From contig CAYHYA010000002.1 in the NCBI GenBank assembly GCA_964360815.1, forward strand, positions 1,371 to 65,370: DNA of 64,000 nt, read 5' to 3'. The position numbers and the translations under genes were made by a program. This stretch comes from an uncultured Candidatus Saccharibacteria bacterium (GTDB lineage: Bacteria; Patescibacteriota; Minisyncoccia; Phycocordibacterales; JACOZG01). A model generated the notes under the pieces. That model did no database searches. It was not told the DNA's origin and worked only from the letters and a program-made list of their open reading frames with translations. Position 1 is the stretch's first letter. Each line of letters begins with the position of its first letter. Below, piece after piece: positions 13,283 to 64,000 of this stretch.

Positions 13283-14631
13283 GCTGGCGCGTTCATCATC
13301 AAGTCTCGTCCCTCACCAGTTTTCGGAAAAGCGATGACTTCGCGAATGTTTGGTTCGTTGCCAAGAAGACTGATTAACCGATCAAGTCCCCAGGCGATTC
13401 CGCCGTGCGGTGGCGCCCCAGCCGCGAGCGCTTGCAACATGTGGCCGAAGTTGTCGTCAATCGCGCGATCGCTGTGACCAAGAATCTTAAACACCGCCCG
13501 CAAGCCGTCAGGACGATGATTACGGATACTGCCCCCACCGATCTCGAGCCCGTTCAGAGTGATGTCGTATTGAGAAGTTAAAATTTGACCAAGGTTTTTT
13601 TGGTTGAGGAGATCTTCCAGCTGTTCCGGTTTGGGCGCGGAAAAAGGGTTATGGGTAAACGTCCACTTGCCGTTGTCCTCTTTCTCAAAAAACGGAAAGT
13701 CCACCACCCAACAGAAAGCCAGCAGATTTTTGTCAGTTTTTTCCTGATCGCTTCGAAGATCGGGGCGATCGCTTTCGTATTTGGCCATAGCCGCTTCGTA
13801 GGTTAGTCGCGGAAACGGAATTTGTTTGATGGTTTTTTCCGGAGTAATTTTTTTAACTATTTCGATTAACAACTTCTCGTTTAGCGCCATGACTTCTTCC
13901 TGTTCAACAAAAGCCATTTCGAGGTCGAGTTGGGTAAATTCCGGTTGGCGATCACCGCGCGTATCTTCATCCCGAAAACAGCGGGCCATTTGGAAATATT
14001 TTTCCACACCGGCCACCATCAAGAGTTGTTTATATTGTTGGGGTGACTGGGGCAGGGCATAAAATTTCCCTGGGTAAAGTCGTGCCGGGACGAGATAATC
14101 ACGGGCGCCTTCCGGCGTGGCCTTGGTCAGGATCGGCGTTTCAATTTCCAGAAAACCCTGTTCCGAGAGGTGGTCGCGAATGAAGCGAACTAATTGATGA
14201 CGCAAATTTAAATTCTTTTGCATTCTCGGTCGCCGAAGATCTAGATAGCGATATCGCAGACGGTTCTCCTCGTCCAGTTCGTAACCGGTTGTTCCCAAAT
14301 CAAACGGCGGGGTTGTGGCTTCATTCAACACTTGGAGAGCCGTGATTTCGAGCTCGATCGCGCCATTTGGCAGTTCTGGTTTGATCATTTTTTCCGGTCG
14401 GCGGTTGACTCGCCCGATCACTTCAAGCACCCATTCCGGTCGAACAGTTTCGGCCAAGCCGTGCGCGGCGGCGTGGCTCGGCAGGGCCACGGCTTGAACT
14501 TTGCCACTGGCGTCGCGAAGATCAATAAAAATAAGTTTGCCGTGATCGCGCCGCACGTCAACCCAGCCGGCCACCGTCACCGTTTCGCCAACTTTTTCCG
14601 TTAAATCTTTTATTGCGATTCGATTTTTCAT
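13279..14631 (-). CDS. aspS: Aspartyl-tRNA synthetase (bacterial-type core lacking the GAD insertion)
   Basis: Anticodon-binding OB N-terminus (GWVDVRRDHGKLIFIDLRD), QSPQQYKQLLM, class II motifs FRDE..., EIGGGSIR, GLDR; 450 aa. Confidence 0.85.
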   Translation of the reverse strand: MKNRIAIKDLTEKVGETVTVAGWVDVRRDHGKLIFIDLRDASGKVQAVALPSHAAAHGLAETVRPEWVLEVIGRVNRRPEKMIKPELPNGAIELEITALQVLNEATTPPFDLGTTGYELDEENRLRYRYLDLRRPRMQKNLNLRHQLVRFIRDHLSEQGFLEIETPILTKATPEGARDYLVPARLYPGKFYALPQSPQQYKQLLMVAGVEKYFQMARCFRDEDTRGDRQPEFTQLDLEMAFVEQEEVMALNEKLLIEIVKKITPEKTIKQIPFPRLTYEAAMAKYESDRPDLRSDQEKTDKNLLAFCWVVDFPFFEKEDNGKWTFTHNPFSAPKPEQLEDLLNQKNLGQILTSQYDITLNGLEIGGGSIRNHRPDGLRAVFKILGHSDRAIDDNFGHMLQALAAGAPPHGGIAWGLDRLISLLGNEPNIREVIAFPKTGEGRDLMMNAPA

Positions 14632-15754: not shown

Positions 15755-16645
15755 ATGAGGTCAATCCTACTGTTCTTGGGGCTATGGTTTTTCGGGTTTC
15801 TGGGTCTAGCGGGGTGCGGGAACTTCCCTACCCCCGAGCAGTCCGAGTTGTCGGCGACAGCAGACGAGGCGGATGCGACTGGGGTAGTCAACAAAAGTAG
15901 GGATTTTATCTTGGCGCAAACTGGTGGTGGGAGTGGGAGCGGCGGAGGAGGAAGTAATGCCCCCACGCTTCACACCGTCAGCGCCTCGGTAAACTTTGAT
16001 CCGGTAGCTGGTCACGGTGATTTTTATCTTGGCGGCAAGACGATTGTCGTGGAAAGAATTAACAGTTACGTTAATTTTTATCCGGACAAGAGCCTGCCCC
16101 GGGACGTTGGCTATTTCGAGGCAACAATCGATCTGGAAGGATCCTTCATTCCGGCCGACGGAACTGTCACTGAGGCGATGGAAAAATTGTTGGACCTCTC
16201 GCTTTTTACCGATGGATTGGTATCTTTCGACCAGTATGGCCTAATGAGAATTCCTCCTGGGTGCGAAAACGGGGAAGAGTTCAATCTGATCACGGGCGAA
16301 AAGTGCCCATGGCAGGGATGGGAGATTGAACCACGAGCCCGTTTGAGTCAAAACGGATACGCTCGACTGAGTGGATATCAGTACGATGACCAGGAAGAGG
16401 TTCAGTATTTCAGCGACTCTTCTTTCCACGTTTACATAAACGGTGGGACAATCACATCTGTCTCCGTCAACGTTTATGTTCGGGAATGGGAAGAAGAAGA
16501 GGACGCCCCGGATTACTGGCTACCCATTCAAGTTTCCGCGAGTTTTCGTGGTGTCGTTACGTTGGAGTACGAGGAATACGATGGCGGAGACGGTGGCGGT
16601 GTTGGGATTGTCCCGCCGGTTGCTGTTCCGCCGGGTAATGGCTAA
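15755..16645 (+). CDS. Hypothetical lipoprotein (lipobox LAGC) with Gly-rich linker
   Basis: MRSILLFLGLWFFGFLGLAGC lipoprotein signal. GGGSGSGGGGS linker. Acidic C-terminal region. Strong RBS. Confidence 0.6.
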   Translation: MRSILLFLGLWFFGFLGLAGCGNFPTPEQSELSATADEADATGVVNKSRDFILAQTGGGSGSGGGGSNAPTLHTVSASVNFDPVAGHGDFYLGGKTIVVERINSYVNFYPDKSLPRDVGYFEATIDLEGSFIPADGTVTEAMEKLLDLSLFTDGLVSFDQYGLMRIPPGCENGEEFNLITGEKCPWQGWEIEPRARLSQNGYARLSGYQYDDQEEVQYFSDSSFHVYINGGTITSVSVNVYVREWEEEEDAPDYWLPIQVSASFRGVVTLEYEEYDGGDGGGVGIVPPVAVPPGNG

Positions 16646-16672
16646 CGAAGGGAGGTGATCTACTAGATCTAG

Positions 16673-50182: not shown

Positions 50183-52116
50183 TCACCTTAATTTGGTGTA
50201 CACATTTACATTTGTCAGATTGGTGTCGGCGGTGGTGTATTTGGTTAGATAACTTTCATAACGTGGATCGGCGAGACGAGCGTAGCCCGTGCCCCACGGC
50301 ACCTGATTTTGGAGGAAATCGCCGTTTTCATTAGTTTGCGATGCGGTGGCGGGATTAACTCCGACTACCGTCACGTCGGCGAGAATACTCCCGTCAACAG
50401 ATTTTACTTTACCGGCGACCGATCCATTGGTATAAACACTAGCAACGTCACTCACCTTAACCCTGGAGATGCCCCCGCCGCTGAAAAAATAAGTGTTGCC
50501 AGACTGATCAGAGGTGCCGAGCGTGGCTTCGTAAACAACGTTGTTCACAAGACCCCCGACCGTGGCGCTTGAGGTTGTGGTTGTGGCACTCACATTTGCC
50601 CCCGACCAACTACTACTACCTTCAAGCCGCCACATGAGCACAATTTTATTAAGATTGGGGTCAAACTTAATTGGCCAGCGCCAGGTAATCGCTGGGGCAC
50701 CGGCACTGGAGACATTCTTGTAACCGACATAATAAAGCGGCAAGCCGGGATGATGGCTTGGATCAGCCAGGTAAATAAATGCTTCTTCGTAATTTGAGTT
50801 AGCATAAATTACGCCATTTTCTCCCTCAATAAACACTTTGAGGGCGACATCGCCTTGGAAATTTCTCGTGTTACTTATCCCTAACGCCAGATCAACGGTC
50901 GAACCGGCATTAACGACGATTTGATTCTGTTCAAAATCAAACGAGGCCAGATGATAATCATCAATAATGAGATGTAGGGCCCCGCGATCAATGGCCACCG
51001 TTCCCGGATTGACCAGGCGGACATTAAAAGTGCTGACCGCTCCCGTTTGCAAACTAGAAGTTGGGGTAATGTCGGTGATAAGCAACTCGTTTGCGCCAAG
51101 ACCAACCGAGAGCGCGGTGACAACTTTGGCCGTAAGATAAACGTTATCATCAAAGCTTCCATTCTTTTTTTGTTTGTCCTCGAAGTAGGTGATGGTTTCC
51201 GCTGGATAAATCGGATTCGCCGTGGCGGCTTTGATCGCGTGGTGGGCCAGCACGGTGTCTAAAAGATTGTTACCCCAAGTGCCGTTTGGTTTCTGGGTGT
51301 TGATTAAAGAAGTCACGGCTGGATCAAGCGTGTCGTCCACGGCAATTTTACCGAGCAGGCGATGCTTCCACGGAAGCAGGGCCTCGATAACCTCACTGGT
51401 TACCGGCAACATGCTCGCGCCGTCTGCCAACACACTCCAGCCGTGGCCGGGTCGTTCCATATTGATGAGATAATGCAAACCGAGCGAAGCGGTGACATTT
51501 GGTTCCTCGCCTCGTCTCGATAATTGGCGGCGTGAAGGGCCTGGAGTGCCTTGGCTGTGGTTAATGGGTCGGATTCATAATCACGATTGAAGCTGAAGCC
51601 GCCCGTCGCCTCGTCGAGACCGCGAGCTAAATCTTCGGCGGTTGAAGTACTAACACCGGCTCGCGCCCACACTGCCAACTGCTCGGCCAAATAATCATTA
51701 TTTTCAGGAATATAATATTCCAACCAGTCGAGACCGCGATCGAGAACCGCGGCGGTGACGCCGCGCGCTTGCAAGGCCTCGAGCGCGGCGACGGTGGTAA
51801 TAAACTTAGTGGGCACATTACTCCCCCATGAGCCATCTTTGTTTTGTTCACCAACAAGATATTCAACCGCCCGATCGATAATCACCGAAACCGCCGGAAC
51901 GCCCCGCGCCCGACTAGACGGCTTGATCTCTATCACCTTAAGACCCAAGATTTTGGCCACCGGCTCGGCCGGTGTTAGTTTGGCTGGATTTAATACCTGG
52001 GCAGTGTTGGCATTTATCACGACCGGTTCAACCATCGCGCTCTCGGCAATGGCGAGTGGCAAATAAAAAAACCAAGCGGCAACTCCCACCACCCAAAACC
52101 CAGTGAGTATCTTCAT
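50183..52116 (-). pseudogene. Secreted QW-repeat (prenyltransferase/terpene-cyclase-like alpha-toroid) protein with C-terminal beta domain, interrupted by a frameshift near 51470-51490
   Basis: Two ORFs (51400..52116 with signal peptide and EQNKDGSWGSN repeat; 50183..51478 with QKPNGTWGNN and KQKKNGSFDDN repeats) overlap by 79 nt in different frames. The downstream frame stays open upstream of its TTG. Same repeat family on both sides implies one gene. Confidence 0.55.
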
Positions 52117-52726: not shown

Positions 52727-54421
52727 TTAATTTGGGGTATTTGGGAGTATTTCTATAGAATTAATAACCTTGTCGGTATCCTGCCATCTCTCCAAAGTAT
52801 TTTGATAAAGCAATCCTTTTATTTCTGCTTTCTTTTCGTCGGGCATAGAGATTAGGAAATAATTAGAATCGTCAAAAAGTTTTTCTATTTTCAGGGTTTT
52901 TGAATTATTGATCGGGATAAAAACGGTTTCTTGGCCACAACCCTCGACTCCAGAGTAAAAAGTGACGCCAGCTTGAGATTTAAATTTTTCTTCATCAATT
53001 AGTGCGTCCTTTTCCATGGTCTTAATCGCTTCTCTTAAACCGGTGTCGAGATACTCTATGGAGAGATAGAAATCCGTTAATTCACCTAGTGGGATAACGG
53101 GTCCGGGGCCCTCCCCACAATATCTAGGGACAATGAGAGAAATAGAATGTTTTAGTTCTATTAATTTATCCGATTCTGTAATTGAAATTGCCGTAGATGG
53201 ATATGAAAATTTAATTCCAAGATTTTTGCTTTCATATGTTGGCCATGCCTGGGAATATATTAGTTCTCCTCCTTCATAATTTCCGTCACACTCCCATTTG
53301 GCAGTATACTTCTGCAATATTAATTGACGATCTATGAGTTTGTATACTCCAGTTGTCCAGCAATCTCCCAACCCCCGACCCTTCGTTGCAGACACAAAAA
53401 CATCTTTTACGGAATCATAAAACATTTCAACAACTCTATAGTTAAAAATTGACTCACCTTCTCTGTTTATTTCTTCGACGAGAAGAGGGGTATAAGTTTT
53501 TCCGTCATCTAATACGACCATGTAAGAGTATTGATAGGCGTGGGCCATACAGAACAAGATCAACACCTTGGTGCCATCGGGCATGATTTTCTCTGGTTTA
53601 ATCGCCTGAACAAATGATCGAAACGGTAATTCGTCAGGAATCCCCGTCATTTCATATGGATAACACTCTTCTTTGTACTGAGCCGCTAACGGTGCCCACC
53701 TCGGATCAGAAGCGGCCAAACTTAAATCTTCTTTAAAATTTTTTTCCTTTTCTTGTTGTTCCAATTGGTTTTCAGAAATTAAAGTATCGTCTATGAGTAT
53801 ATAATTGTGGTTAGATAGGTAATCTTTTTCTTTACGAGACATGGTGATAATTCCTTCTTTATATTCCACAAAATCAATGTCTGACCAGTTATCTTCATTG
53901 TTAATAAATTTAATTGGCACCAGTAACCCCCCTACTTCACGTAGAATTTGATAGGAACTAAAACCTTTTTCATTCTTCGTTCGAATTAACGCTTCGCTGA
54001 CCCCATCTCCGCTTATATCTTTTTGAAAAATATTTGTTTCAAAAGCTTCGGTACTGTTTTGAACCTTCTGTGCCGACTTGATCACAATGACAGGTTCGGG
54101 ATGTAAGCCAATCGAAAAAAATTGATAGATACTTCTTTCTTTTGGTTTGTTTTCAACGACTAGAAAGAATGGGGTATTGCCGATCTTTATTTCTTTCGCA
54201 TAGAAGTCGTACTCGAACGATTCATGATTTCCGAAACTATAATGATAATTACCAGGGAGGGTTTTTATTCTAAAATAAGGATAGATGGCTCTCAGGATTG
54301 GTGGGGCAGAATATTTTAATATCGCTTCCCTGTAACCAATGACCACAACGACCACAACCAAAACCGTCCCTAAAATTATAATTAAACGCTTCTTGTATTT
54401 TGAATTCTGACTTCTCAACAT
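52727..54421 (-). CDS. Membrane-anchored FG-GAP-like repeat protein, paralog 1 (long form)
   Basis: N-terminal TM (LIIILGTVLVVVVVVIGY) and DISGDGVSEALI Ca-binding-type DxxxDGxxE repeat. Shares family with four downstream paralogs. Start set at internal ATG after the upstream gene stop. Confidence 0.55.
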   Translation of the reverse strand: MLRSQNSKYKKRLIIILGTVLVVVVVVIGYREAILKYSAPPILRAIYPYFRIKTLPGNYHYSFGNHESFEYDFYAKEIKIGNTPFFLVVENKPKERSIYQFFSIGLHPEPVIVIKSAQKVQNSTEAFETNIFQKDISGDGVSEALIRTKNEKGFSSYQILREVGGLLVPIKFINNEDNWSDIDFVEYKEGIITMSRKEKDYLSNHNYILIDDTLISENQLEQQEKEKNFKEDLSLAASDPRWAPLAAQYKEECYPYEMTGIPDELPFRSFVQAIKPEKIMPDGTKVLILFCMAHAYQYSYMVVLDDGKTYTPLLVEEINREGESIFNYRVVEMFYDSVKDVFVSATKGRGLGDCWTTGVYKLIDRQLILQKYTAKWECDGNYEGGELIYSQAWPTYESKNLGIKFSYPSTAISITESDKLIELKHSISLIVPRYCGEGPGPVIPLGELTDFYLSIEYLDTGLREAIKTMEKDALIDEEKFKSQAGVTFYSGVEGCGQETVFIPINNSKTLKIEKLFDDSNYFLISMPDEKKAEIKGLLYQNTLERWQDTDKVINSIEILPNTPN

Positions 54422-54431
54422 CTTCTTATTT

Positions 54432-55316
54432 TTATTTGAACAACTCCTTAAATTCTGGTGATGTTTCTGCCACCTCTTTCCAGAGGTAGTATTCGACACC
54501 GCTCCATTTATAGATTTGAGTGTATCGCCCCTTACCCACCATGTCTGGAGAGGTTGGAATAAGACCGAGGTTTTCTAAAGCGGGATCAATGATTATGACT
54601 TCCAAGATTCCATCACCATCTTTATCTTGAAACAAATCAGGAAATTTATCATAGCGTTTCATTAAAAAATAAAATCTATTCCATGAAGTTACATCTGAAT
54701 CTGTGTGCTCAAAATTAAAATCTCTGGTTGAATCTTTTTTCTTACCGACAATCGGATTTAGCACTTTGTATGTTTTGATTTTTGGATCAAGAGATATTAT
54801 CCAAAACTCTTTATCGTTGTATTCTTCCTCTATGTTTCTATACAGAGCACCTCCCTCCGAATATATGACCAACTCTTTTAGTCCATCGTTGTTTATATCC
54901 CTGACCTCTTTTATAAGTTGTTCCGGCTTCCATAAAAAAGGAGAGTTTATTTCCCAATAGATATAGTACTGGTTATTGGTTAGGTGTTTTAACATAATAA
55001 TTCCGCCTTTTTCTCCATAATCATCGGCCTTATAAACTCCAATGGTTACTCTTGTAGGTGGATTATTGTCGTCCAAAAGATATGTTTGGTTCTTTTCATA
55101 AAAATCACGTTTGGTTTCGGTCATACTTTTTAAGAGACGGTATCTATTACTACGTTTCTCTGGTGGTATATTTGAAAGATCAACAATTCTATTAGTAAAA
55201 GTATTAACTTCGACCGGTGTCAGTGTCTTGTTGTTTATTTGGTATATAAATATCCCGACTATTATAATCAAAACTGTCGCTTGGGCTATTTCGTATATTA
55301 ATTTTTTATTTTTCAT
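54432..55316 (-). CDS. Membrane-anchored FG-GAP-like repeat protein, paralog 2 (carries conserved YYLWKEVAETSPEFKELFK tail)
   Basis: N-terminal TM. RDINNDGLKELVIY and DKDGDGILEVII repeats. 3'-terminal 57 nt near-identical to paralogs 4 and 5. Confidence 0.6.
   Translation of the reverse strand: MKNKKLIYEIAQATVLIIIVGIFIYQINNKTLTPVEVNTFTNRIVDLSNIPPEKRSNRYRLLKSMTETKRDFYEKNQTYLLDDNNPPTRVTIGVYKADDYGEKGGIIMLKHLTNNQYYIYWEINSPFLWKPEQLIKEVRDINNDGLKELVIYSEGGALYRNIEEEYNDKEFWIISLDPKIKTYKVLNPIVGKKKDSTRDFNFEHTDSDVTSWNRFYFLMKRYDKFPDLFQDKDGDGILEVIIIDPALENLGLIPTSPDMVGKGRYTQIYKWSGVEYYLWKEVAETSPEFKELFK
54439..54495. repeat. 57-nt conserved segment (3' end of FG-GAP paralog 2), copy 1 of 3
   Basis: aacaactccttaaattctggtgatgtttctgccacctctttccagaggtagtattcg; 3 variable positions among copies at 54439, 56418 and 59741. 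Confidence 0.8.
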
Positions 55317-55324
55317 TTTCGGTA

Positions 55325-55595
55325 TCACTGGTCCTGTTCATGATATGTCCCGCATACATTATTTGCATACTGAATCGTTGATGGAGCTCTGCCATTATAA
55401 TAACGAACAGCCCACCACAAACGATCTTTATCATTATCTAATAATTGAGTTACCCCTTGCCACAACAAAGTATTGTTATTATAGTCCTGTTTTAAAGCTT
55501 CGACCCAATTACTGCCGTAGGTGCTGATAAAATATTGGTTATTGTACGGTTCAACCTTAATAAAATTCCGATGAACGCATAGATTTTCTTGCTGT
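55325..55595 (-). pseudogene. Start-less remnant of a lysozyme-like (SLT/GH23-like) C-terminal cassette
   Basis: Open frame beginning immediately after the stop of paralog 3, with no start codon. Translation ...QYFISTYGSNW...RYYNGRAPSTIQYANNVCGTYH aligns with the ...SSYGLMQ...LLQYNRDPQYAIDVYKIY end of the orphan cassette at 57195..58166. Confidence 0.4.
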
Positions 55596-55610
55596 GTGAG
55601 CTATGCATGG

Positions 55611-56390
55611 TTATGGAGGATACAACACGTTGCCAACCGAATACTGATCTTCCCCTGTGGATGGAGTGAGGGAATCTTTTTGTTCTCTCCAAAGAAAATA
55701 TTTTGAACCATCCCATTTATAGGCCCGATAGACTTTCTTATTGATCACATCAAGCCGATTTTCTGCTAATCCAAGAAAAATGTTGTAGGGTTGAACAATT
55801 TCTGGAATACCGTCTTTGTCCACATCAAAAATTTTCGTCATGCTTTCCTCGCCACCAAAACCTACATAGTTGGATTCTTTTCCGTCTGGTCTTATGTGTA
55901 TGAGATATGGGGTAATCATATCAAAACCGTCACTATTCCATTTGTAGATATACAGGGTTTCGCCCTTGTCATTATCCCATAGAGCAAGGATCTCGTTTAC
56001 ACCATCACCAGTAAGATCAGACACGCCCACCTTTGATCTTGGGTCAGAAATATCTTCTGTGCTTTCCCATATAAGTTTTATTTTTTCAAATTCTTTTTCC
56101 TCAAAAACCAATATTCCTTGCTGGTGGTGGGTAATAATAAGATTCTTTGCCCCAGTTTTAGTTAAAGAAAATCTCTGGTAATCTTTCCCTTTCGTAGCAA
56201 TCACGTGGTCAATCCGATTTTGTCTGTCTATTGGGTAATATAGTTCAGGTTCTCCCACCACGGGGGTGAACATGGCCGTAGAGGTTGCTGTGTCTTGCAC
56301 GTCTGGTTTTCTTGAATCAAACAAAAAATATAGACCAGCACCCAAGAGAATTATTATTCCCCACGATACGGCTATTTTGATTTTTGACAT
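55611..56390 (-). CDS. Membrane-anchored FG-GAP-like repeat protein, paralog 3
   Basis: N-terminal TM. SDLTGDGVNEILAL and FDVDKDGIPEIVQ repeats. Diverged C-terminus KYFLWREQKDS... Confidence 0.55.
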   Translation of the reverse strand: MSKIKIAVSWGIIILLGAGLYFLFDSRKPDVQDTATSTAMFTPVVGEPELYYPIDRQNRIDHVIATKGKDYQRFSLTKTGAKNLIITHHQQGILVFEEKEFEKIKLIWESTEDISDPRSKVGVSDLTGDGVNEILALWDNDKGETLYIYKWNSDGFDMITPYLIHIRPDGKESNYVGFGGEESMTKIFDVDKDGIPEIVQPYNIFLGLAENRLDVINKKVYRAYKWDGSKYFLWREQKDSLTPSTGEDQYSVGNVLYPP

Positions 56391-56410
56391 GTTATTTTTT
56401 TACTCAATAA

Positions 56411-57211
56411 TCACCTAAACAACTCCTTAAATTCTGGTGATGTTTCTGCCACCTCTTTCCAGAGATAGTATTCGGAGCCGTTGAATTTGAAAACACTGGC
56501 GGACTGATGAATATCTTCGTAATCACCACTTTCATTTAGTGTAAGAACCTCTAAATTGCCATCATTTTCAAGATCAATGAATTTAACATCGGTGCCTGCC
56601 ATCCAACGATCGGATTCAGTCTCGGCCCCTGGATTTGGATTTATTAATTTAAATTCATCGTTATTCCATTGATAAATCCAGAATGTGGGAACAAGACGCA
56701 CTCCTTGCCACGCAATAAGCACGAGTTCATCAATTCCATCATTATTAATATCTTTGAATTCAGTGGTGCCCTTCATTGCTGAAAAATATTCTTTGCTTTC
56801 CCAAATAATTGAAAAGTGGTTATCCTTTTTTATAAAAACCAGTATGCCTCCTCTGTATGTTCCGCGTTCATCTTCGGGATGATTAGAATCTTGTCTCGAC
56901 TTATTTATGACCGTATCAGGACTATTCGGCATATAATAAACTGCGTACTTTTTTTCGCCATTTAATGTCGGGACTTTACTTGAAGAAAAAGCTGAATTAT
57001 ATTCAGAAAGGGGAACGGATTCTATGTAATTTAGCATATACTGTCTGGGGTGTTGCCAGTAGGACTTCTCGTCAAAACTGACCGACCAATGATTATTTGG
57101 AATTTCGGTTATCTCCTGTTTTACTTTAGTTAAGTAAAAAATCACCGCGATTATACAAAAAACAATAATAACAGCGGTCATACTTTTTCTCTTGTTAATC
57201 ATATATGCCAC
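56411..57211 (-). CDS. Membrane-anchored FG-GAP-like repeat protein, paralog 4 (conserved tail ...EYYLWKEVAETSPEFKELFR)
   Basis: N-terminal TM. FKDINNDGIDELVL and FIDLENDGNLEVLT repeats. Conserved 57-nt 3' end. Confidence 0.6.
   Translation of the reverse strand: MAYMINKRKSMTAVIIVFCIIAVIFYLTKVKQEITEIPNNHWSVSFDEKSYWQHPRQYMLNYIESVPLSEYNSAFSSSKVPTLNGEKKYAVYYMPNSPDTVINKSRQDSNHPEDERGTYRGGILVFIKKDNHFSIIWESKEYFSAMKGTTEFKDINNDGIDELVLIAWQGVRLVPTFWIYQWNNDEFKLINPNPGAETESDRWMAGTDVKFIDLENDGNLEVLTLNESGDYEDIHQSASVFKFNGSEYYLWKEVAETSPEFKELFR
56418..56474. repeat. 57-nt conserved segment, copy 2 (3' end of FG-GAP paralog 4)
   Basis: Near-identical to copies at 54439 and 59741, including synonymous positions. 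Confidence 0.8.
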
Positions 57212-58477
57212 TTAAATAAATTTTATAAACATCAATTGCATACTGCGGGTCACGATTGTACTGGAGGAGTGCCTCTTTTATTTTTTGTTCGTACGACCAG
57301 GCAGGATGTTGATTTTCAGCGACTCCATAGTAAAAGTTCAAGGTATGTACCCCCACTTTAATGTTTACGGATGGAATAAACAAATCTTCGACGGGTCTAG
57401 CCGGACTGGAGACGTCCTCGAAACCATTCCATCTAGCGGTCTCATAGAGTATTTGCATCAAACCATAACTAGAAGCCAGAATTAACTGGGCGGTATAGTT
57501 TAGATTGGGAGGTAAAGAGGTCCAATCGCGATTTGGGTTAGCCTTAACTATCTCTTGGGCGGTAGGATTAGAATTTGTGTTCGCAATATTGAGTTTAGGG
57601 AACGCATCTTCACGATGCCTCATAAAAATACTTGTGCTCATGTCCGACACTTGATCCCCATTTATAAAAGTTTCTCCTGGGACATTATGCCCTCCGAGTC
57701 GCCAGTGTTTTTCCGGAAACCCATGCAATCCACGCCAACCTTGCTCTTGTGGCAGCGTAGAATCAAGTTTTGAATACCAATTGTAATCAGTATGAATTTC
57801 ATATCTTATGGCTTTTGGTTTGAAATTACTCTCTTTTTTGATCACCGCCTTTATCAGGGCGGCGGGAATATCTTTTGTCGCGTTATCCATGATAATACCA
57901 TCAACATCATTGTTATTTCCCCTATCTCCCAGCGTGGTCTCTTCTATTCGCACCCCGACGCTAGCGTTCGTGCCGTAACCGGACCGAAGTAAGATGGGGC
58001 CGGTGACTTGGTCGAGCGGCGGGCGATCCGTTCTCACAATACCAGTTTCGTCCCACTCATGAATCGTGGTACCGGCGAGAGTGGAAGTATAGCGCGCGTG
58101 CCAATTTATAGATTGTCCGCGGATAAATGACTGATTTTTATTCGGCAAAATAATGTTGGCTATCAAATTCGGAAGAAGATGCTGCCGCCAAAAATTCTCC
58201 CAACCGTTCGGCCATTCTTCGACCGTATAGCCACCGTTCAGACCCTCACCAATAGCGTACGTCGCATCACCACCGGCAAAGTCAATGGCGAGATAAAATA
58301 AACCTTGCCAGTCGTTATAAGTGAGCGGCGCCGTCGGCGTGTAAATAATTTTACCGGCGGCGACGGCGTTATGGAAAGCGGTTTTGAGGGCTGATGAAAT
58401 AACCAGAGAATCGATCTCGCTATCATTCGCGGCGGTAATCTTTTTAGAATCGCCAAAAAGTTTTTCTATTCCGATTT
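57195..58477 (-). other. Promoter-less, start-less orphan C-terminal cassette: 503-bp segment identical to the large gene followed by an alternative lysozyme-like (SLT/GH23-like) C-terminal domain
   Basis: Frame is open from the TAA at about 58478 through 57195 with no ATG/GTG in the first about 110 codons. Residues ...KITAANDSEIDS...GTNASVGVRI are nucleotide-identical to 61309..61811. Downstream domain has IKAVIKKESNFKPKA (ES motif), SSYGLMQILYETA and YNRDPQY motifs. Confidence 0.6.
57944..58446. repeat. 503-bp direct repeat, copy B (identical to 61309..61811)
   Basis: Base-by-base comparison in the window. Identity starts at ...cgcaccccgacgctagcg and ends at ...cggcggtaatcttttta in both copies (offset 3365 bp). 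Confidence 0.85.
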
Positions 58478-59005
58478 AAATTTTTTGATCAAGTTTTCCT
58501 TTATGGCATATAGTTCATTACTTTTCTCTCTATCTTTCTCGGTATTATTGTCACAAAGTTCTTCATTAACTATCTGATTGTTGTTTCTGTAGGAAAAAGA
58601 GACAAAACTTGTGCAATTGGGATGGCTTATATCCCATATCTTCATTGCTATCTCATGTTCTGTTGTTATAGCAGAAAACGGCTTAATAGAGTATTCGAAG
58701 CTTAGTATAAATTCACTATTCACCATATCAAAAACATACTCATGTGATATGAGTGGTGGGTTAGGGTTAAAATCGTGAACAATTAAAAGACAAGTATTAA
58801 GTTTCGGACTATACCTGACAATTTTGTACTCCTTAGTGTTGGATAAACCTTTTTTATCATATAATTCATTGCACAAAATTGCCTGACGTATTAAATTGTT
58901 TTTTGGCAAGTAAAAAATAAAATAATAACTTAGGCCAATACCACTTAAGAAAATTCCCAGTACCATTAGAGAATAAACAAACTTTTTTATATTTAAATAA
59001 TTCAT
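58466..59005 (-). CDS. Hypothetical small membrane protein, very AT-rich
   Basis: 179 aa, N-terminal TM (LMVLGIFLSGIGLSYYFIFYL); about 30 % GC. Confidence 0.4.
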   Translation of the reverse strand: MNYLNIKKFVYSLMVLGIFLSGIGLSYYFIFYLPKNNLIRQAILCNELYDKKGLSNTKEYKIVRYSPKLNTCLLIVHDFNPNPPLISHEYVFDMVNSEFILSFEYSIKPFSAITTEHEIAMKIWDISHPNCTSFVSFSYRNNNQIVNEELCDNNTEKDREKSNELYAIKENLIKKFKSE

Positions 59006-59038
59006 GTTTAGGTTGGGTAATTAGTGAAAAACATGATC

Positions 59039-59710
59039 TCAATCCAATAATGACTTGATGTTTTCAATAGCAGTTCTCACAACTATATCTCTAAACTCAT
59101 CATAGGTTATTTTGAGGCTGAGAGCAATTTGGCGCTTTTTGTATGGTTTTCCTAAATATCCGAAGGTCATAAAACTCCAACTATTATAACCTTGATTCTC
59201 AAATTCGTTTTTCTGTTTTTTATCAAGGAAGCTAAAACTAAAATAATCTTCTCCGTGAACTGCTTTATTTCTTACTTCATAAAGTATCTTAATAATTGAA
59301 GAAAAAAGGAGTGTATGATGTCCTGGTTTTGTTAATGCTCTTTGGAAATCACACATCATTATTTTCTTGTCTTCAGGGAGAACAAGATCAAAAAATTTCT
59401 TTAGAGATTCAGAGGACTTAATCTTATTAATTCCAATCCGTTGTTTAGCAATAGATTCCGCTAAAGCCACCAAAAAAATAATTTTAAGAGCAGGTCTGTT
59501 GTTTCTCACTTTTTCCTGATCATCAGCTATTTGTGTATACCATTGAGCACAAAGAAGCATTCTACGAGTTTTTAATTTCCTTAAGCAATTTTTTATAAAA
59601 TCAGTCCTTTTGAATACTTCAGGAAAAACTATCTCTAAAAAAGTATTTAGTTCTGGATCCTCTAAAATGTCCTGTTTAATTTGGTTATCTAGTTTTTTCC
59701 AATCATTCAT
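59039..59710 (-). CDS. Hypothetical cytoplasmic protein with Rx4H (HEPN-like) motif, very AT-rich
   Basis: 223 aa. EVRNKAVHGEDY matches the HEPN Rx4-6H signature; otherwise no motif. Confidence 0.35.
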   Translation of the reverse strand: MNDWKKLDNQIKQDILEDPELNTFLEIVFPEVFKRTDFIKNCLRKLKTRRMLLCAQWYTQIADDQEKVRNNRPALKIIFLVALAESIAKQRIGINKIKSSESLKKFFDLVLPEDKKIMMCDFQRALTKPGHHTLLFSSIIKILYEVRNKAVHGEDYFSFSFLDKKQKNEFENQGYNSWSFMTFGYLGKPYKKRQIALSLKITYDEFRDIVVRTAIENIKSLLD

Positions 59711-59733
59711 TTTGTTTTTAAAAAATAATTAAA

Positions 59734-60489
59734 CTACTTAAACAACTCCTTAAATTCTGGCGATGTTTCTGCCACCTCTTTCCAAAGATAGTATTCGGTG
59801 CCGTTGAATTTATAAATAAACACCAGTGCTTTTTCGTTTTCATCTCTATAACCAACAGCAATTTCCTGGATTTTGTCATCATCAATATCTCTAATATAAG
59901 CAAGTTCGGCATCGCCAACCAAAATAGTCCATCCGTATTTAATTTTTATTGAAGATACTGTTGATTCTTGAATTTCAATTGGTGTAATAATTTTGAATTT
60001 ATCACTCGTAAATTTATAGACATAGAAGGCACCACTTCTTCCTGTCACTCCTAGATCTCCGGCCCAAACAATTTCATCAATTCCATCGTTGTCAATGTCT
60101 AAAAAACTCACATATGGACTATCGATGTAATCTTCACTTTCCCAGAATAAGACGGGTTGGTTGTTGACAAGCTTAAATACAAGAATTCCACCAAACATCC
60201 GTCCAGGTTTATTGTTTAATGAACCATCAAGTCGGTATGTTTCGCTGTATCCAGTTAATAAGTATGTTTCGCCATTAATTTTTGTTGTTCTTAATTTGTC
60301 AGGATGTTCCATCGCATCCTGTATCGCTATCTCTCTATTACTTAATTCTTCTTTTTCTATTATTGGTTGGGGAATATTGTCGGGATCCTTAATGGTTGGA
60401 GAGACTTGTGAGTGATTAAAAAATATCAAAACTAATAAAATTATAATTCCGCCGGCGTAAATAATATTTTTGAGTGTTAGATATTTCAT
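59734..60489 (-). CDS. Membrane-anchored FG-GAP-like repeat protein, paralog 5 (conserved tail ...EYYLWKEVAETSPEFKELFK), immediately downstream of the large effector-like gene
   Basis: N-terminal TM. FLDIDNDGIDEIVW and IRDIDDDKIQEIAV repeats. Conserved 57-nt 3' end. Start set at internal ATG (MKYLTLKN...) to avoid overlap with the upstream gene. Confidence 0.6.
   Translation of the reverse strand: MKYLTLKNIIYAGGIIILLVLIFFNHSQVSPTIKDPDNIPQPIIEKEELSNREIAIQDAMEHPDKLRTTKINGETYLLTGYSETYRLDGSLNNKPGRMFGGILVFKLVNNQPVLFWESEDYIDSPYVSFLDIDNDGIDEIVWAGDLGVTGRSGAFYVYKFTSDKFKIITPIEIQESTVSSIKIKYGWTILVGDAELAYIRDIDDDKIQEIAVGYRDENEKALVFIYKFNGTEYYLWKEVAETSPEFKELFK
59741..59797. repeat. 57-nt conserved segment, copy 3 (3' end of FG-GAP paralog 5)
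   Basis: Near-identical to copies at 54439 and 56418. Confidence 0.8.
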
Positions 60490-60493
60490 ATGA

Positions 60494-63400
60494 TTATTTA
60501 TAATTACTCGTATAAATTCGACATACATCTGGTCTATACAGTGGGCCAGAATTATAACGCCTCAAGGCTTCACTCCACCCAGCACAATTATCATTGGGGA
60601 CGAGCTGTCCACCACTCCTAATAAATTTACTTTTCAAAATAGCGGCCGCCGCCTCTACACCCAACTCGACATCATCAACAAGACTGTGGGGACTATGATA
60701 GTCTTTCATAACCAAATTACCTTCTGGATCCTCCACTTCGGTTGCTTCGGCATACATCACATGACCCAATCCATAACTGGAAGAGATCAAGAATTGAGGT
60801 GTGAAATTACCGGTAAAGCCCGCAGGGTTACCAAAAGCTGGCCAACCTTGGCTCGTACGTCCGTTATCAATATCGCGGTCGTTCGCATAAAGTTCGGCTA
60901 CAGTAATGGGAATTTTATCATGGGGTGTTCGATCCGTCATTATAATTCCTCGATATTGCCAGCCCCCGTTTCTTGTATTCTTAAGAGTGGTGCGATAATC
61001 TCTCGGTAAAGAACTCACTCGTGGTCCATCCAAAAGGGTTGACCCTTGGGAGTTTTTCCCAGCCAGAACGTAGTAAGAAAATGGTAAATTATCCATACCA
61101 ATTGATGGATTGGGACCTGAAAAATTTTCATAATCCCTCTTGGGTTCATAACGAGAGGTTCTGGGATCAAATATTCTATCTGTTTGCGTTTCTTTGTGAA
61201 TAATTGCCTTAAGTATTCCAGGGGGAATACCATATTTGTTAGCATTATTAGTAATTTCTACATCATACATGTTGTATACATTTCCAATCTTCATCTCTTC
61301 ATCCTCAACTATCCGCACCCCGACGCTAGCGTTCGTGCCGTAACCGGACCGAAGTAAGATGGGGCCGGTGACTTGGTCGAGCGGCGGGCGATCCGTTCTC
61401 ACAATACCAGTTTCGTCCCACTCATGAATCGTGGTACCGGCGAGAGTGGAAGTATAGCGCGCGTGCCAATTTATAGATTGTCCGCGGATAAATGACTGAT
61501 TTTTATTCGGCAAAATAATGTTGGCTATCAAATTCGGAAGAAGATGCTGCCGCCAAAAATTCTCCCAACCGTTCGGCCATTCTTCGACCGTATAGCCACC
61601 GTTCAGACCCTCACCAATAGCGTACGTCGCATCACCACCGGCAAAGTCAATGGCGAGATAAAATAAACCTTGCCAGTCGTTATAAGTGAGCGGCGCCGTC
61701 GGCGTGTAAATAATTTTACCGGCGGCGACGGCGTTATGGAAAGCGGTTTTGAGGGCTGATGAAATAACCAGAGAATCGATCTCGCTATCATTCGCGGCGG
61801 TAATCTTTTTAAGCGTTACGCCCGGAAACTCGCCGGCCGCGACCAGCTTCAAGCCCTTCACCGTGGCCACCGCTTCAACGTCAAAATCATTTTCAAAAAT
61901 ATCGGACTCGTCTTGGGAGGCCTGAAGACCGAACAACGCCGCAAATTCTTCAAGATGAGCGTTGGCCTCTTCGTCGAAACGATTGAAATATCGCACCTTG
62001 GCAAAAGAATCTATGCGTAAACCTTGCCAGTCGAAAGAATAGGGTTCGCTCTCATCAAACACCACTTCGAGCCCGTTAGACACCGTGGCTCGAGTGGCGG
62101 TGTGGGTGAAAGCGCCACCGATGATGTCGGTGAGTTCCTGTTGCGTTTCGGCTAGTCGGTATAAATAATCCACGGCCGTCCGATAAAGTTTCTGATCTCT
62201 CACCAAGCTCGTACTGCCGCCGTCTTCGGCCGATCTTTGATCGGGCGATACCACCCGGTCAGTATTGAAGGCGAGCGCGTCCGTACTGCCGGCAATAATT
62301 TTCTGCTCGTGCGTGGCGGGAATTTCCGTCCTCATGTCACCCTCTTCATCTCGAACCGGAACGGCAAACTCTATCGAATACGACTCCGCGCGGCCGAGCG
62401 TGGAGGCGGCGCGGCCGAGAGCCACGACTCGACCGTTGATTTTCAGGGTTGGTTTAACCTCAACTAGCGCGAGTGGCACAACGTCATAGATGGTGTCAAA
62501 ACTATCAATGATCGTCTGGTCTTCAGGTGTCGCCGGATCGTGAGTCACTAATATCTCGTTATCAGCTAGATCAGAAACATAGGCCCGGTGATCAAGGATT
62601 ACATTTTCTTGCTCGTTTTTGATGGTGAATCTGATCGAATGACGGAAGGGAGTCGGAACGTAGGCGTCAACACCTAAAACGGTAACGATTTTATACGGCA
62701 ACGAGCCGGGAATAAAATCAAGATTTTGCAATTTAGGATATGAACGCGTCAGTGCTTCGGTATAGGTTAAGTCAGGATAATACTCCGGGCGAGCCGAGGT
62801 GAGAGATAGTTCTACTTCTCTTTTGAATGCTTCTAGTGGTTCCAGATCGCCGTAGTCGCCCGCAAGATAACGATCAAAAAATTCTTCCGTGATAAAACCC
62901 TGGCCCTTCAGGTGTTCGACGACATCAATAAAACGCTCGTAATAATATGCATTGATGCTCGGCTCTAGTGGCACCCACTGGGCGATGCCGCCGTCATTCG
63001 GATCAGCTCCGCGACTGTAGCCGTAGGGTATATGCGCCTCGACATAAGTATGTTCAACCACGAAAAAATACGGTTCGTCATTGAGAGTGTAAAGGGTGTA
63101 GGGAATTTTTTCGAGTGACAGAATCCGAGCGGCGGCAATGGGCGAGTCAACGCCCAACCAATCAGTCATCGTTCTCAAGTTAACTTTGATGTCGGCGCGA
63201 CGATAACGAGCCGGGACCCCGCTCGAGCGAAGCATGGCCACCAGCAACGAGGCTTTGTCCATGTCGTTGCCCGCCCGCTCGAGCAGGGTGGCATGAGCCC
63301 CCTTCTTTGATCCAAAATACGGCACGTGGCTAACTTCGTTTCGGACAAAATTGAGCATTGCAAGCGGATCGTGGTTAAGCTCGTCAGCTTTGTTTTGAAT

Positions 63401-63898
63401 GGCTGGCGTAAATTTGATCTCATCGCCTTCCCCGAGATAATTGAGCGGATCACCGACCGAATCGATTGGCCGAGCTGATGAATTTACCATGCTTTCTGTT
63501 TCTTGAAACACGGCCACCGGCCTCGTGTTGATTCGGCCGGAAAAAGTTTCGACTCTAAACGGCTCCTGTTCAGTGAGCCGGCCGATGGTCGGTTGAACCG
63601 GAACTTTTTTCTGACGGGCGCTTGGCTGGCGCGCTTCATACGCATTAAGCCGATCAAGGGCCACCGACGGCAGATGGCTAGCCAAAAGATGTTGCCTAAC
63701 CGCCGCGAGTTGTGCTGCCTTAGAGAGGTTGGGATTTTTCTTGAATTTGGCATTGCCACCGACAGTCTGTGAAGATGAAATATTTTTAATTACCGGGTTC
63801 TCAATCAGGGGCAAGGCCTCCATCACGGGGGCCACCGGTGTTAGAGCAAACGAAAAAAGCAAAAGGGCTGACGGAATCTTTATGTCTAATCCCCTCAT
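60494..63898 (-). CDS. Large secreted multidomain protein: transglutaminase-like fold (Cys replaced) plus C-terminal lysozyme-like (SLT/GH23-like) domain, putative peptidoglycan-targeting effector
   Basis: Probable signal peptide MRGLDIKIPSALLLFSFALTPVAPVMEA (start chosen at 63898; an upstream in-frame ATG at 63988 exists near the window edge). ATLLERAGNDMDKASLLVAMLRSSGVPARY resembles the transglutaminase-like core with Cys replaced by Asp. C-terminal IPPGILKAIIHKETQ...SSSYGLGHVMYAEA...YNSGPLY parallels SLT motifs. Confidence 0.6.
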   Translation of the reverse strand: MRGLDIKIPSALLLFSFALTPVAPVMEALPLIENPVIKNISSSQTVGGNAKFKKNPNLSKAAQLAAVRQHLLASHLPSVALDRLNAYEARQPSARQKKVPVQPTIGRLTEQEPFRVETFSGRINTRPVAVFQETESMVNSSARPIDSVGDPLNYLGEGDEIKFTPAIQNKADELNHDPLAMLNFVRNEVSHVPYFGSKKGAHATLLERAGNDMDKASLLVAMLRSSGVPARYRRADIKVNLRTMTDWLGVDSPIAAARILSLEKIPYTLYTLNDEPYFFVVEHTYVEAHIPYGYSRGADPNDGGIAQWVPLEPSINAYYYERFIDVVEHLKGQGFITEEFFDRYLAGDYGDLEPLEAFKREVELSLTSARPEYYPDLTYTEALTRSYPKLQNLDFIPGSLPYKIVTVLGVDAYVPTPFRHSIRFTIKNEQENVILDHRAYVSDLADNEILVTHDPATPEDQTIIDSFDTIYDVVPLALVEVKPTLKINGRVVALGRAASTLGRAESYSIEFAVPVRDEEGDMRTEIPATHEQKIIAGSTDALAFNTDRVVSPDQRSAEDGGSTSLVRDQKLYRTAVDYLYRLAETQQELTDIIGGAFTHTATRATVSNGLEVVFDESEPYSFDWQGLRIDSFAKVRYFNRFDEEANAHLEEFAALFGLQASQDESDIFENDFDVEAVATVKGLKLVAAGEFPGVTLKKITAANDSEIDSLVISSALKTAFHNAVAAGKIIYTPTAPLTYNDWQGLFYLAIDFAGGDATYAIGEGLNGGYTVEEWPNGWENFWRQHLLPNLIANIILPNKNQSFIRGQSINWHARYTSTLAGTTIHEWDETGIVRTDRPPLDQVTGPILLRSGYGTNASVGVRIVEDEEMKIGNVYNMYDVEITNNANKYGIPPGILKAIIHKETQTDRIFDPRTSRYEPKRDYENFSGPNPSIGMDNLPFSYYVLAGKNSQGSTLLDGPRVSSLPRDYRTTLKNTRNGGWQYRGIIMTDRTPHDKIPITVAELYANDRDIDNGRTSQGWPAFGNPAGFTGNFTPQFLISSSYGLGHVMYAEATEVEDPEGNLVMKDYHSPHSLVDDVELGVEAAAAILKSKFIRSGGQLVPNDNCAGWSEALRRYNSGPLYRPDVCRIYTSNYK
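61309..61811. repeat. 503-bp direct repeat, copy A (inside the large gene, at the trunk/C-terminal-domain junction)
   Basis: Identical to 57944..58446. Confidence 0.85.
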
Positions 63899-64000
63899 TC
63901 GTGTTCGCTTTGGATGCGGCCCCAGAGGGTGCGGAGTTCGTTGATCGCCATTCCCCCCTCGTCTTTGTTTGGCGGTTTGCCGTGCCACTCATAACGCCGT

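Follow-up and report, generated by a model that had tools for sequence, protein, structure and literature searches.

The window analysed here, i.e. the whole 64-kb stretch (64,000 nucleotides) of DNA from a Patescibacteria bacterium of the Candidate Phyla Radiation (CPR) found in Hainich groundwater, carries a direct repeat of 503 bp, which we call R, in two genes of one island. One copy lies within the gene of a large secreted protein, the main gene, at the point where the conserved body of the protein (the trunk) gives way to a variable C-terminal tip (CT1). The other copy lies in a trunk-less reading frame, the orphan, which ends in a different tip (CT2). We consider it likely that the orphan copy of R is the homology stub of a silent toxin plus immunity cassette in a polymorphic-toxin locus. 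The elements that carry this interpretation are the following:

60494..63898, minus strand: main gene, coding for a secreted protein of ~1134 amino acids when the open reading frame (ORF) is taken from the ATG at 63898 (1164 amino acids from the GTG at 63988)
61309..61811, minus strand: copy of R in the main gene, coding for trunk residues 697-863 and including YAIGEGLNGGY and an Ig-like linker ending SGYGTNASVGVRI
60494..61308, minus strand: CT1, the resident lytic-transglycosylase-like tip (BLASTP against CT2, E 1e-18; MltC profile match)
57195..58475, minus strand: orphan cassette, a 426-codon open frame composed of the R stub and CT2 (ORF analysis)
57944..58446, minus strand: copy of R in the orphan (direct self-comparison)
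57195..57943, minus strand: CT2, the orphan lytic-transglycosylase-like tip (Pfam SLT, E 2e-10; homology with CT1)

Repeat, trunk and orphan frame

Direct comparison of the two copies of R (57944-58446 and 61309-61811) showed that 502 of the 503 bases are equal, in direct orientation and at an offset of 3365 bp. The initial annotation had described a perfect repeat of 503 bp; the repeat is real and its length and offset are correct, but it is near-perfect, with a sole mismatch at 57948/61313, five bases from the tip-proximal edge, that is synonymous (Arg, CGA vs CGG). Alignment brought out no further mismatches, and the unbroken identical run (57949-58446) covers 498 bp. Outside both edges the identity drops to 17-34% (ungapped, 100-bp bins), in line with the earlier estimate of less than 40%. 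Both copies are read from the minus strand in one codon phase and encode the same 167 residues, and an alignment of homologues places them where they had been annotated: R ends at the V-x-I junction, at which trunk conservation stops and the tips diverge. Self-comparison of the window gave just two families of direct repeats of at least 40 nt, R and an 81-nt family of the same island, which excludes a chance origin of R. The sequence stems from short-read metagenome assemblies with ~3-5x coverage, and since the assembler may have merged differences in the interior of the repeat, the safe wording for its true identity is at least ~99%.

The main protein consists of a signal-peptide-like N-terminus (judged by eye), a transglutaminase-like domain, the conserved trunk and the CT1 tip, which comprises the 271 residues that follow R. 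The Pfam family Transglut_core matches residues 199-262 (E 1.1e-7). At the position expected for the catalytic Cys, G210, N211, D212 and D214 are invariant in all 23 homologues that were aligned (G-N-D-x-D vs the expected G-x-C-x-D). Because the catalytic Cys is replaced in all 23 sequences, the transglutaminase-like domain is predicted to be inactive across the family.

In a collection of 5.8 billion proteins the best match of the main protein was 50% identical and no close relative was present. Dozens of homologues share 42-52% identity and have lengths of 1130-1300 amino acids; they originate mostly from metagenome-assembled genomes (MAGs) labelled Patescibacteria, Minisyncoccia, Paceibacterota, Liptonbacteria, Gribaldobacteria and similar. 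The alignment of the 23 homologues showed that the trunk is conserved up to an invariant Y-A-I-G-E-G-L-N-G-G-Y, with invariant columns reaching G768, and that in most homologues conservation extends through the Ig-like linker ending S-G-Y-G-T-x-x-S-V-x-V-x-I. Every homologous trunk contains R as an integral and conserved section. Past the trunk, the 23 homologues split into proteins with different SLT subtypes, Amidase_2, RNase, PT-TG and 'CWASDQ...Y' tips. According to Pfam, the tip of locus L006 is an Amidase_2 domain (E 1.7e-18) and that of L005 a ribonuclease (PF00545 Ribonuclease, E 3e-5), while the homologue P0021 carries PT-TG (PF14449), a pre-toxin TG domain; the distant Myxococcus homologue P0031 bears the RHS-associated PF20148. 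Searched without filters, 1.84 billion representatives of 50%-identity clusters yielded trunk matches in at least 935 clusters at E<=1e-30, a number that rises to 2475 when E<=1e-10 is allowed. Most of the 150 matches listed of the 935 end near residue 775, just past GEGLNGGY, and trunk-matching proteins are up to 3700 amino acids long. The family of the main protein is thus very large, its members having a constant body but variable ends, and it is a polymorphic-toxin family.

The orphan frame opens at 58475, directly after the stop codon of the preceding gene (i1c, see below), and consists of 11 unrelated codons, the 167 residues of R and CT2. It has no trunk and no signal peptide, and its first 103 codons hold no ATG, GTG or TTG, the first possible start being the TTG at 58166. 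The frame is intact across its 426 codons. Scans for promoters and terminators across the island did not rise above shuffled expectation and are uninformative on the silence of the orphan.

Since the two genes share 498 bp of unbroken identity in the same reading phase, RecA-type recombination would fuse the trunk to CT2. A crossover simulated in the 498-bp tract removes 3365 bp and leaves an intact trunk-CT2 gene of 1112 codons' worth of protein (1112 amino acids), followed by the gene i2a. This bears out the earlier proposal that recombination in R would delete the resident tip together with three genes and join the trunk to the orphan tip. The initial annotation did not mention the location of the genes on the minus strand, the lack of a start codon in the orphan, the 81-nt 3' end of the FG-GAP genes as a further block of homology in the cassettes, or that such an architecture is standard for polymorphic-toxin loci.

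Tips, putative immunity genes and related cassettes

As annotated initially, the domains behind R are divergent and lysozyme-like: both are lytic-transglycosylase-like, and CT1 and CT2 are homologous at 27-28% identity. A profile of 16 tips of this family matches E. coli MltC in the PDB (E 0.0016) over the catalytic E-S and GLMQ motifs; single-sequence PDB searches with CT1 and with CT2 gave no match, and just the family profile reached MltC. The presumed catalytic glutamate E44 and 16 other positions are invariant in all 16 tips, the orphan included, and CT2 thus retains every invariant residue of the tip family. Judged by these matches, the lysozyme-like identity of CT2 is well supported. 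That of CT1 is reasonably supported, the SLT match being indirect, through homology with CT2, the family profile and the invariant E44. The AlphaFold2 model of CT1 is mediocre (mean predicted local distance difference test score, pLDDT, of 68.5, with a disordered low-confidence insert at 75-172), and its top Foldseek matches are endolysins and lytic transglycosylases, all of them weak (best E 0.011). The closest relatives of CT2 (56-61% identity) are found in orphan or remnant cassettes of the loci L019 and L027. CT1 is 57% identical to the main tip of L010, and the identity between the CT1-type tip and that of L022 (P0001) is 53%.

All genes of the region are encoded on the minus strand. Those downstream of the two tips are:

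59734..60528, minus strand: i1a, a membrane-anchored FG-GAP protein (Pfam FG-GAP_3), by co-variation the putative immunity protein for CT1
59039..59710, minus strand: i1b, 223 amino acids without transmembrane segment, inside the segment that a crossover could delete
58466..59005, minus strand: i1c, 179 amino acids, transmembrane segment at the N-terminus, directly preceding the orphan
56411..57211, minus strand: i2a, an FG-GAP protein (Pfam FG-GAP_3), putative immunity protein for CT2, 46% identical to the L027 neighbour
55611..56390, minus strand: i2b, an FG-GAP protein with similarity to neighbours in L003 and L015
54432..55328, minus strand: i2c, an FG-GAP-like paralogue with the conserved 81-nt 3' end
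52727..54499, minus strand: gene of a 590-amino-acid DUF1176 protein (Pfam DUF1176, E 3e-12), probable ATG near 54421, which closes the island

The type of tip and the type of downstream gene co-vary in five independent pairings. The i1a protein is 58% identical to L010_i1 and 48% identical to the neighbour in L022, where the matching tips share 57% and 53% identity, respectively. The i2a protein shares 46% identity with the L027 neighbour, the corresponding value for CT2 and the L027 remnant being 61%. The main tips of L008 and L015 are 56% identical and their neighbours 44%, and the 'CWASDQ' tips of L004, L007, L011 and L013 are followed by a separate family of neighbours. Because of this co-variation of tip and FG-GAP gene we read the FG-GAP genes as immunity genes, with i1a and i2a as the putative cognate partners of CT1 and CT2. 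All FG-GAP proteins possess an N-terminal hydrophobic anchor (by eye), and such an anchoring in the membrane suits a protein that protects the wall from outside the membrane. In L005 the RNase tip is followed by a SMI1_KNR4/SUKH gene (E 1e-5); RNase and SUKH protein form a signature polymorphic-toxin pair.

On the basis of distant relatives i2b was considered as a partner of CT2, and this was dropped as the closest CT2 relative (L027, 61%) is followed by an i2a-type gene. The i2b protein has 50% identity with the protein encoded behind the main tip of L003 and 34% with the one encoded behind the first orphan of L015, and is probably an orphan immunity protein for a related SLT subtype. The 590-amino-acid protein is 32% identical to L007_i and L004_i, which follow 'CWASDQ...Y' tips; this relationship to the 'CWASDQ' neighbour family makes it a candidate, and the similarity suggests that its gene is an orphan immunity gene. 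Searches of NCBIfam and PADLOC were uninformative for it, and no match to i1b or i1c was found in Pfam, NCBIfam or PADLOC. Neither i1b nor i1c is present in L010 or L022, two CT1-type loci that resemble the window in other respects.

Further downstream, at 50183-52116 on the minus strand, the window contains the overlapping ORFs 51400-52116 (weak match to SQHop_cyclase_C) and 50183-51478. Jointly, these correspond to a single large secreted protein (965-2450 amino acids) that is encoded after the toxin and immunity genes in most related loci; the gene in the window looks frameshifted, or contains a sequencing error. The same large downstream gene is split in L010 (5033-10790) by an insertion of two genes, one of which is of the i1a-type FG-GAP class (6986-7753), which indicates that immunity genes spread outside the toxin-proximal array too.

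The island (~52.6-60.6 kb) has a GC content of 30-40% vs ~50% in the flanks, and an Rfam scan of the window gave no RNA family. In addition to R, it harbors two sets of shorter repeated blocks:

59736..59816, minus strand: 81-nt conserved 3' end of i1a, encoding ...YYLWKEVAETSPEFKELFK* and 93% identical to 56413-56493
56413..56493, minus strand: 81-nt conserved 3' end of i2a (self-comparison)
54434..54514, minus strand: 81-nt conserved 3' end of i2c, sharing an exact run of 47 nt with the i2a copy
58444..58470, minus strand: 27-nt block abutting the 5' edge of the orphan copy of R
52863..52889, minus strand: the other copy of the 27-nt block, located towards the 3' end of the gene of the 590-amino-acid protein

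The 81-nt 3' ends of i1a, i2a and i2c share 84-93% DNA identity, whereas the proteins are otherwise 30-39% identical. For the pair i1a/i2a the block is 93% identical at the DNA level vs ~39% protein identity over the remainder, and the longest exact run is 23 nt. The 27-nt blocks match at 26 of 27 positions and lie 5581 bp apart, with 0 such matches expected by chance. A role as site-specific recombination site was considered for the 27-nt block and rejected, as there is no recombinase among the scanned proteins of the locus and no third copy. It is probably a rearrangement scar.

Stub-bearing cassettes were also found in other genomes, by tblastn and self-comparison of related loci:

L020/L015/L021, from a further Hainich genome (101-kb contig): a main gene followed by two orphans, with stubs of 199 bp at 100% and 102 bp at 98% identity
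L008, an unclassified bacterial MAG: a trunk fragment stub of 286 bp at 97%
L010, a Candidatus Liptonbacteria MAG: a stub of 85 bp at 95%, in a module with its own signal peptide
L019, JGI contig Ga0213870_1004479, with an unrelated FN3-repeat trunk: an orphan tip 56% identical to CT2 and a stub of 554 bp at 77%
L027, a Logan contig: an amidase-tipped main gene and, next to it, a decayed remnant of the CT2 type joined to an N-terminus like that of an immunity protein

The stubs start at varying positions of the trunk (about 574, 697, 702, 732 and 740), which argues for illegitimate 5' junctions and not for a fixed site. In L015 (2055-2085 and 4128-4160) and L008 (4008-4040) the orphans begin with a shared leader AATTAA..ATG encoding MKSPYF, MQSPYF or MKDFYF, and the stubs behind it start at differing places of the trunk; at its 5' boundary, a cassette seems to include part of the unit before it. 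Identical stubs in L020 (12212-12410 vs 16464-16662 and 14403-14504) end at GEGLNGGY, not past the Ig-like linker, so the family uses at least two exchange junctions. Mosaic identity is seen among the main gene of L020 and its two orphans. One orphan of L015/L020 holds a tip that is 61% identical to the RNase tip of L005, without a Pfam RNase match of its own. L019 (1-5354) encodes an FN3/Ig-like-repeat trunk protein with an SLT tip, an FG-GAP neighbour and the orphan. As this orphan tip, related to CT2, accompanies another trunk, tip cassettes are common to different trunk families. L027 (10001-10705) encodes a chimera of 234 amino acids, in which an N-terminus like that of the 590-amino-acid protein is joined to the C-terminal half of a CT2-type tip lacking the catalytic region; it is a decaying orphan beside an intact i2a-type gene, and a serine recombinase gene is located 8 kb downstream.

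Proposed tip switching and competing explanations

Replicate contigs were available from three assemblies of one well (Hainich H51 groundwater, 0.1-um fraction) and match the window at 99.9-100%. Contig L017 (4129 bp) runs from i1b via i1c, the entire orphan copy of R and CT2 to i2a and i2b, with unique flanks on both sides. L023 (2955 bp) starts 38 nt inside the main copy of R, covers CT1, i1a, i1b and i1c and stops 55 nt into the orphan copy, a point that is also the end of L024; L018 begins 2 nt beyond the repeat. Together, these four contigs reproduce three of the four repeat junctions. Nucleotides 1-37 of L017 mismatch the window at 59596-59632 and match none of the compared loci, and four clustered substitutions occur inside i2a (56884-56888); these differences could be strain variation or an end error. 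That assembly duplicated a single-copy trunk end, or chimerically joined two strains, is extremely unlikely. The low coverage, a repeat that is longer than a short read, the breaking of several contigs at R, and the location of the lone mismatch, where the unique flank lets reads be phased, would all be compatible with such an artefact, but the replicate contigs are independent of each other and L017 crosses the whole orphan copy into unique sequence. Moreover, in a k=55 graph a true genomic repeat is expected to give contig ends at 55 nt into the repeat, the stub of the orphan shares the reading frame of CT2, and the same architecture is present in at least four other genomes, including the one on a 101-kb contig.

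The mechanism that we propose starts from a main protein that would be exported by the Sec system and carry CT1 as an exchangeable peptidoglycan-cleaving tip, with i1a protecting the producer's own wall. RecA-type recombination between the copies of R would then fuse the trunk to CT2. This could proceed by simple deletion of the 3365 bp that hold CT1, i1a, i1b and i1c, or through a transient duplication that would keep the old immunity gene, as in Salmonella rhs. Tip switching by homologous recombination is, from our analysis, the most likely function of the repeat.

Several points weigh against this proposal. The databases searched contain no recombinant (trunk-R-CT2) protein or contig and show the parental junctions only, and a near-identical trunk is represented there by just a 482-amino-acid fragment (P0035), none being full-length. 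The junction from trunk to R is present in the window alone, and the identity in the interior of R is possibly inflated by the short-read assembly. With i1a lost in a simple deletion, the cell would be open to attack by the CT1 of its siblings. The structural matches that point to a lysozyme-like fold of CT1 are weak (Foldseek E >= 0.011), with a large low-confidence insert in the model. We infer the toxicity of CT1 and CT2, the immunity provided by FG-GAP proteins, the actual recombination and the origin of the duplicate, and the hydrolases could serve in host attack or self-remodelling. Finally, the L010 'orphan' has its own signal peptide and those of L015/L020 have an ATG, so that such modules may not always be silent.

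Another possibility is that the orphan of the window is expressed alone, e.g. as a protein of 323 amino acids that starts at the in-frame TTG 58166, with R as a domain shared by paralogues. Gene callers indeed annotate this product (P0032), and the starts and signal peptide of the orphans just mentioned agree with it. We regard solo expression as very unlikely, because the orphan of the window lacks a start in its first 103 codons as well as a signal peptide, a wall hydrolase made from TTG 58166 would remain in the cytoplasm, away from its substrate, and constraint at the protein level does not account for 99.8% identity at synonymous sites. It is less improbable, though still unlikely, that the locus is not a weapon, and that the tips are surface autolysins or host-wall openers of an episymbiont, accompanied by paralogous inhibitors, with R as a by-product of a recent tandem duplication or insertion that plays no part in switching and will decay. 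Most tips of the close family are peptidoglycan hydrolases (SLT, amidase) and not intracellular toxins, attachment to hosts is the way of life of CPR bacteria, a one-off duplication junction would explain the 27-nt scar at the edge of the stub, and the stub-bearing module of L010 has a signal peptide. Against this stand the RNase tip with SUKH gene that the same trunk bears in L005, with a homologous tip in an orphan of L015/L020, and the PT-TG pre-toxin domain in P0021. Furthermore, antagonistic polymorphic toxins are typified by neighbours specific to the tip, arrays of immunity genes and orphan cassettes (PMC3482391), and the orphan ORF is uninterrupted for 426 codons and has kept all invariant residues.

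A further alternative concerns the way in which tips would be exchanged. As the CT1-i1a and CT2-i2a units are each flanked by R and an 81-nt block, replacement without deletion could be possible: gene conversion would copy CT2-i2a over CT1-i1a with nothing deleted, which would keep the copies of R identical and would resemble the antigenic variation of pilE/pilS, here acting on a toxin tip. The 81-nt block, with 93% identity of DNA vs ~39% of protein elsewhere, has kept synonymous sites too, near-perfect stubs occur in three independent genomes, and the main gene and two orphans of L020 are mosaic. However, the longest exact run in the i1a/i2a blocks (23 nt) is of marginal length for an exchange of the RecA type, no converted variant turned up, a single recombination in the past could also account for the 81-nt block, and the values for the L019 stub (77%) and for orphan 1 vs orphan 2 of L020 (91%) show that homogenisation is not general. 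We therefore judge such non-destructive switching to be distinctly unlikely. A similarly low probability is assigned to the broader idea of CPR episymbionts with programmed, possibly reversible tip switching of a surface protein that degrades walls, in which two homology blocks kept near-identical by conversion bracket the silent cassettes and the beta-propeller-like FG-GAP proteins form an undescribed immunity class for lytic-transglycosylase toxins. If programmed switching were true, the lineage would change the peptidoglycan chemistry that it attacks, or the kin that it excludes, without loss of genes.

With regard to the origin of the duplicate, an incoming cassette could have displaced an older tip, or a tandem duplication could have been followed by replacement. 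The 27-nt block fits the junction of a tandem duplication (unit 52863-58443), of which the proximal interior may then have been replaced by CT1-i1a-i1b-i1c; duplication and replacement would give near-identical copies of R without continuing conversion. The identity of R is equally compatible with a CT1 cassette having been imported recently from a conspecific donor whose trunk was identical. The initial annotation took the identity of R as a sign of ongoing gene conversion or very recent duplication, a conclusion that is not established, given that import and duplication with replacement explain the repeat just as well.

Relation to known toxin systems

The locus displays the features tested for an orphan-cassette polymorphic-toxin locus, i.e. 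a constant body with a variable tip, a tip-specific neighbour and cassettes. In such systems a single recombination in the 3' tip region swaps the tip and brings along its immunity gene, and both cassette replacement and Sec-dependent toxins with an inactive transglutaminase domain were described by Zhang et al. 2012 (PMC3482391). The latter class resembles the protein described here in its signal peptide, Cys-less transglutaminase domain, variable toxin tips, adjacent immunity genes and standalone cassettes, and bacterial Ig-like domains are sometimes adjacent, comparable to the Ig-like linker found here (PMC3482391). In that class the transglutaminase domain is 'always' followed by RHS repeats, whereas there is no RHS/YD Pfam match at E<=0.01 here (PMC3482391). 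The trunk also differs from the class of Zhang et al. in being a distinct conserved body of ~770 residues that ends in YAIGEGLNGGY. To our knowledge, CPR members of the inactive-transglutaminase toxin class were not known in 2012.

The closest analogue is the rhs main/orphan pair of Salmonella. In the rhs-main/rhs-CT-orphan locus of Salmonella Typhimurium, the main gene and its immunity gene precede a C-terminal fragment that lacks a promoter and is paired with an immunity gene of its own (Koskiniemi et al. 2014, PMC3967940). Recombination in the shared stretch, which joins the core to the orphan tip, was shown experimentally in that system, where the shared tract is 522 bp at 95% identity vs 503 bp at 99.8% here (PMC3967940). 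Unlike the Salmonella system, the locus in the window has no RHS/YD repeats and no PAAR or type VI secretion system (T6SS) context, export is of the Sec type, the bacterium is a CPR member with a Gram-positive-type envelope, the tips are wall hydrolases and not intracellular toxins, and recombination was simulated. No Pfam match to RHS, PAAR or VgrG was found in the main protein or in the nine downstream proteins of the locus that were scanned, and the junction motifs differ from the PxxxxDPxGL type of Rhs. Pfam gave Transglut_core alone in the main protein, with none of the domains of CdiA, and no VENN motif was seen by eye. The main protein is not an Rhs, CdiA or MafB protein.

Similar arrangements occur in other systems. 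Orphan CdiA-CT/CdiI modules were reportedly described by Poole et al. in 2011. Both the CdiA orphans and Neisseria MafB have downstream arrays of silent tip-immunity cassettes, each of which keeps a conserved piece up to the junction motif. This motif is VENN in CdiA, whereas it is GEGLNGGY or SGYGT..SV.V.I in the family described here, and unlike CdiA and MafB the locus has no two-partner secretion (TPS) or filamentous haemagglutinin (FHA) domains and no DUF1020. The T6SS muramidase Tse3 (Tge1) is a lysozyme-fold effector that is neutralised by the extracytoplasmic Tsi3. It is among the weak fold matches of CT1 (E about 2, at fold level only), while its delivery differs and the immunity candidates here are of the FG-GAP type. 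In Vibrio cholerae, displacement of effectors leaves arrays of orphan immunity genes, to which i2b, i2c and the gene of the 590-amino-acid protein may be compared as orphan immunity candidates.

The literature searched contains no polymorphic toxin family centred on CPR bacteria, the nearest case being one RHS-type candidate in a Saccharibacteria genome. What is new is the phylum, the family's size, tips that are wall hydrolases, and FG-GAP proteins as their partners; the design itself is familiar to the specialist. A long perfect direct repeat where trunk and tip meet is what one expects to see of an orphan toxin cassette and no anomaly. CPR/Patescibacteria make up a large share of groundwater communities, and their dealings with hosts and competitors are poorly understood. 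The near-perfect stub is a concrete substrate on which tip switching can be tested in a lineage without cultures, and the FG-GAP proteins are candidates for a new class of immunity proteins or inhibitors directed against lytic transglycosylases.

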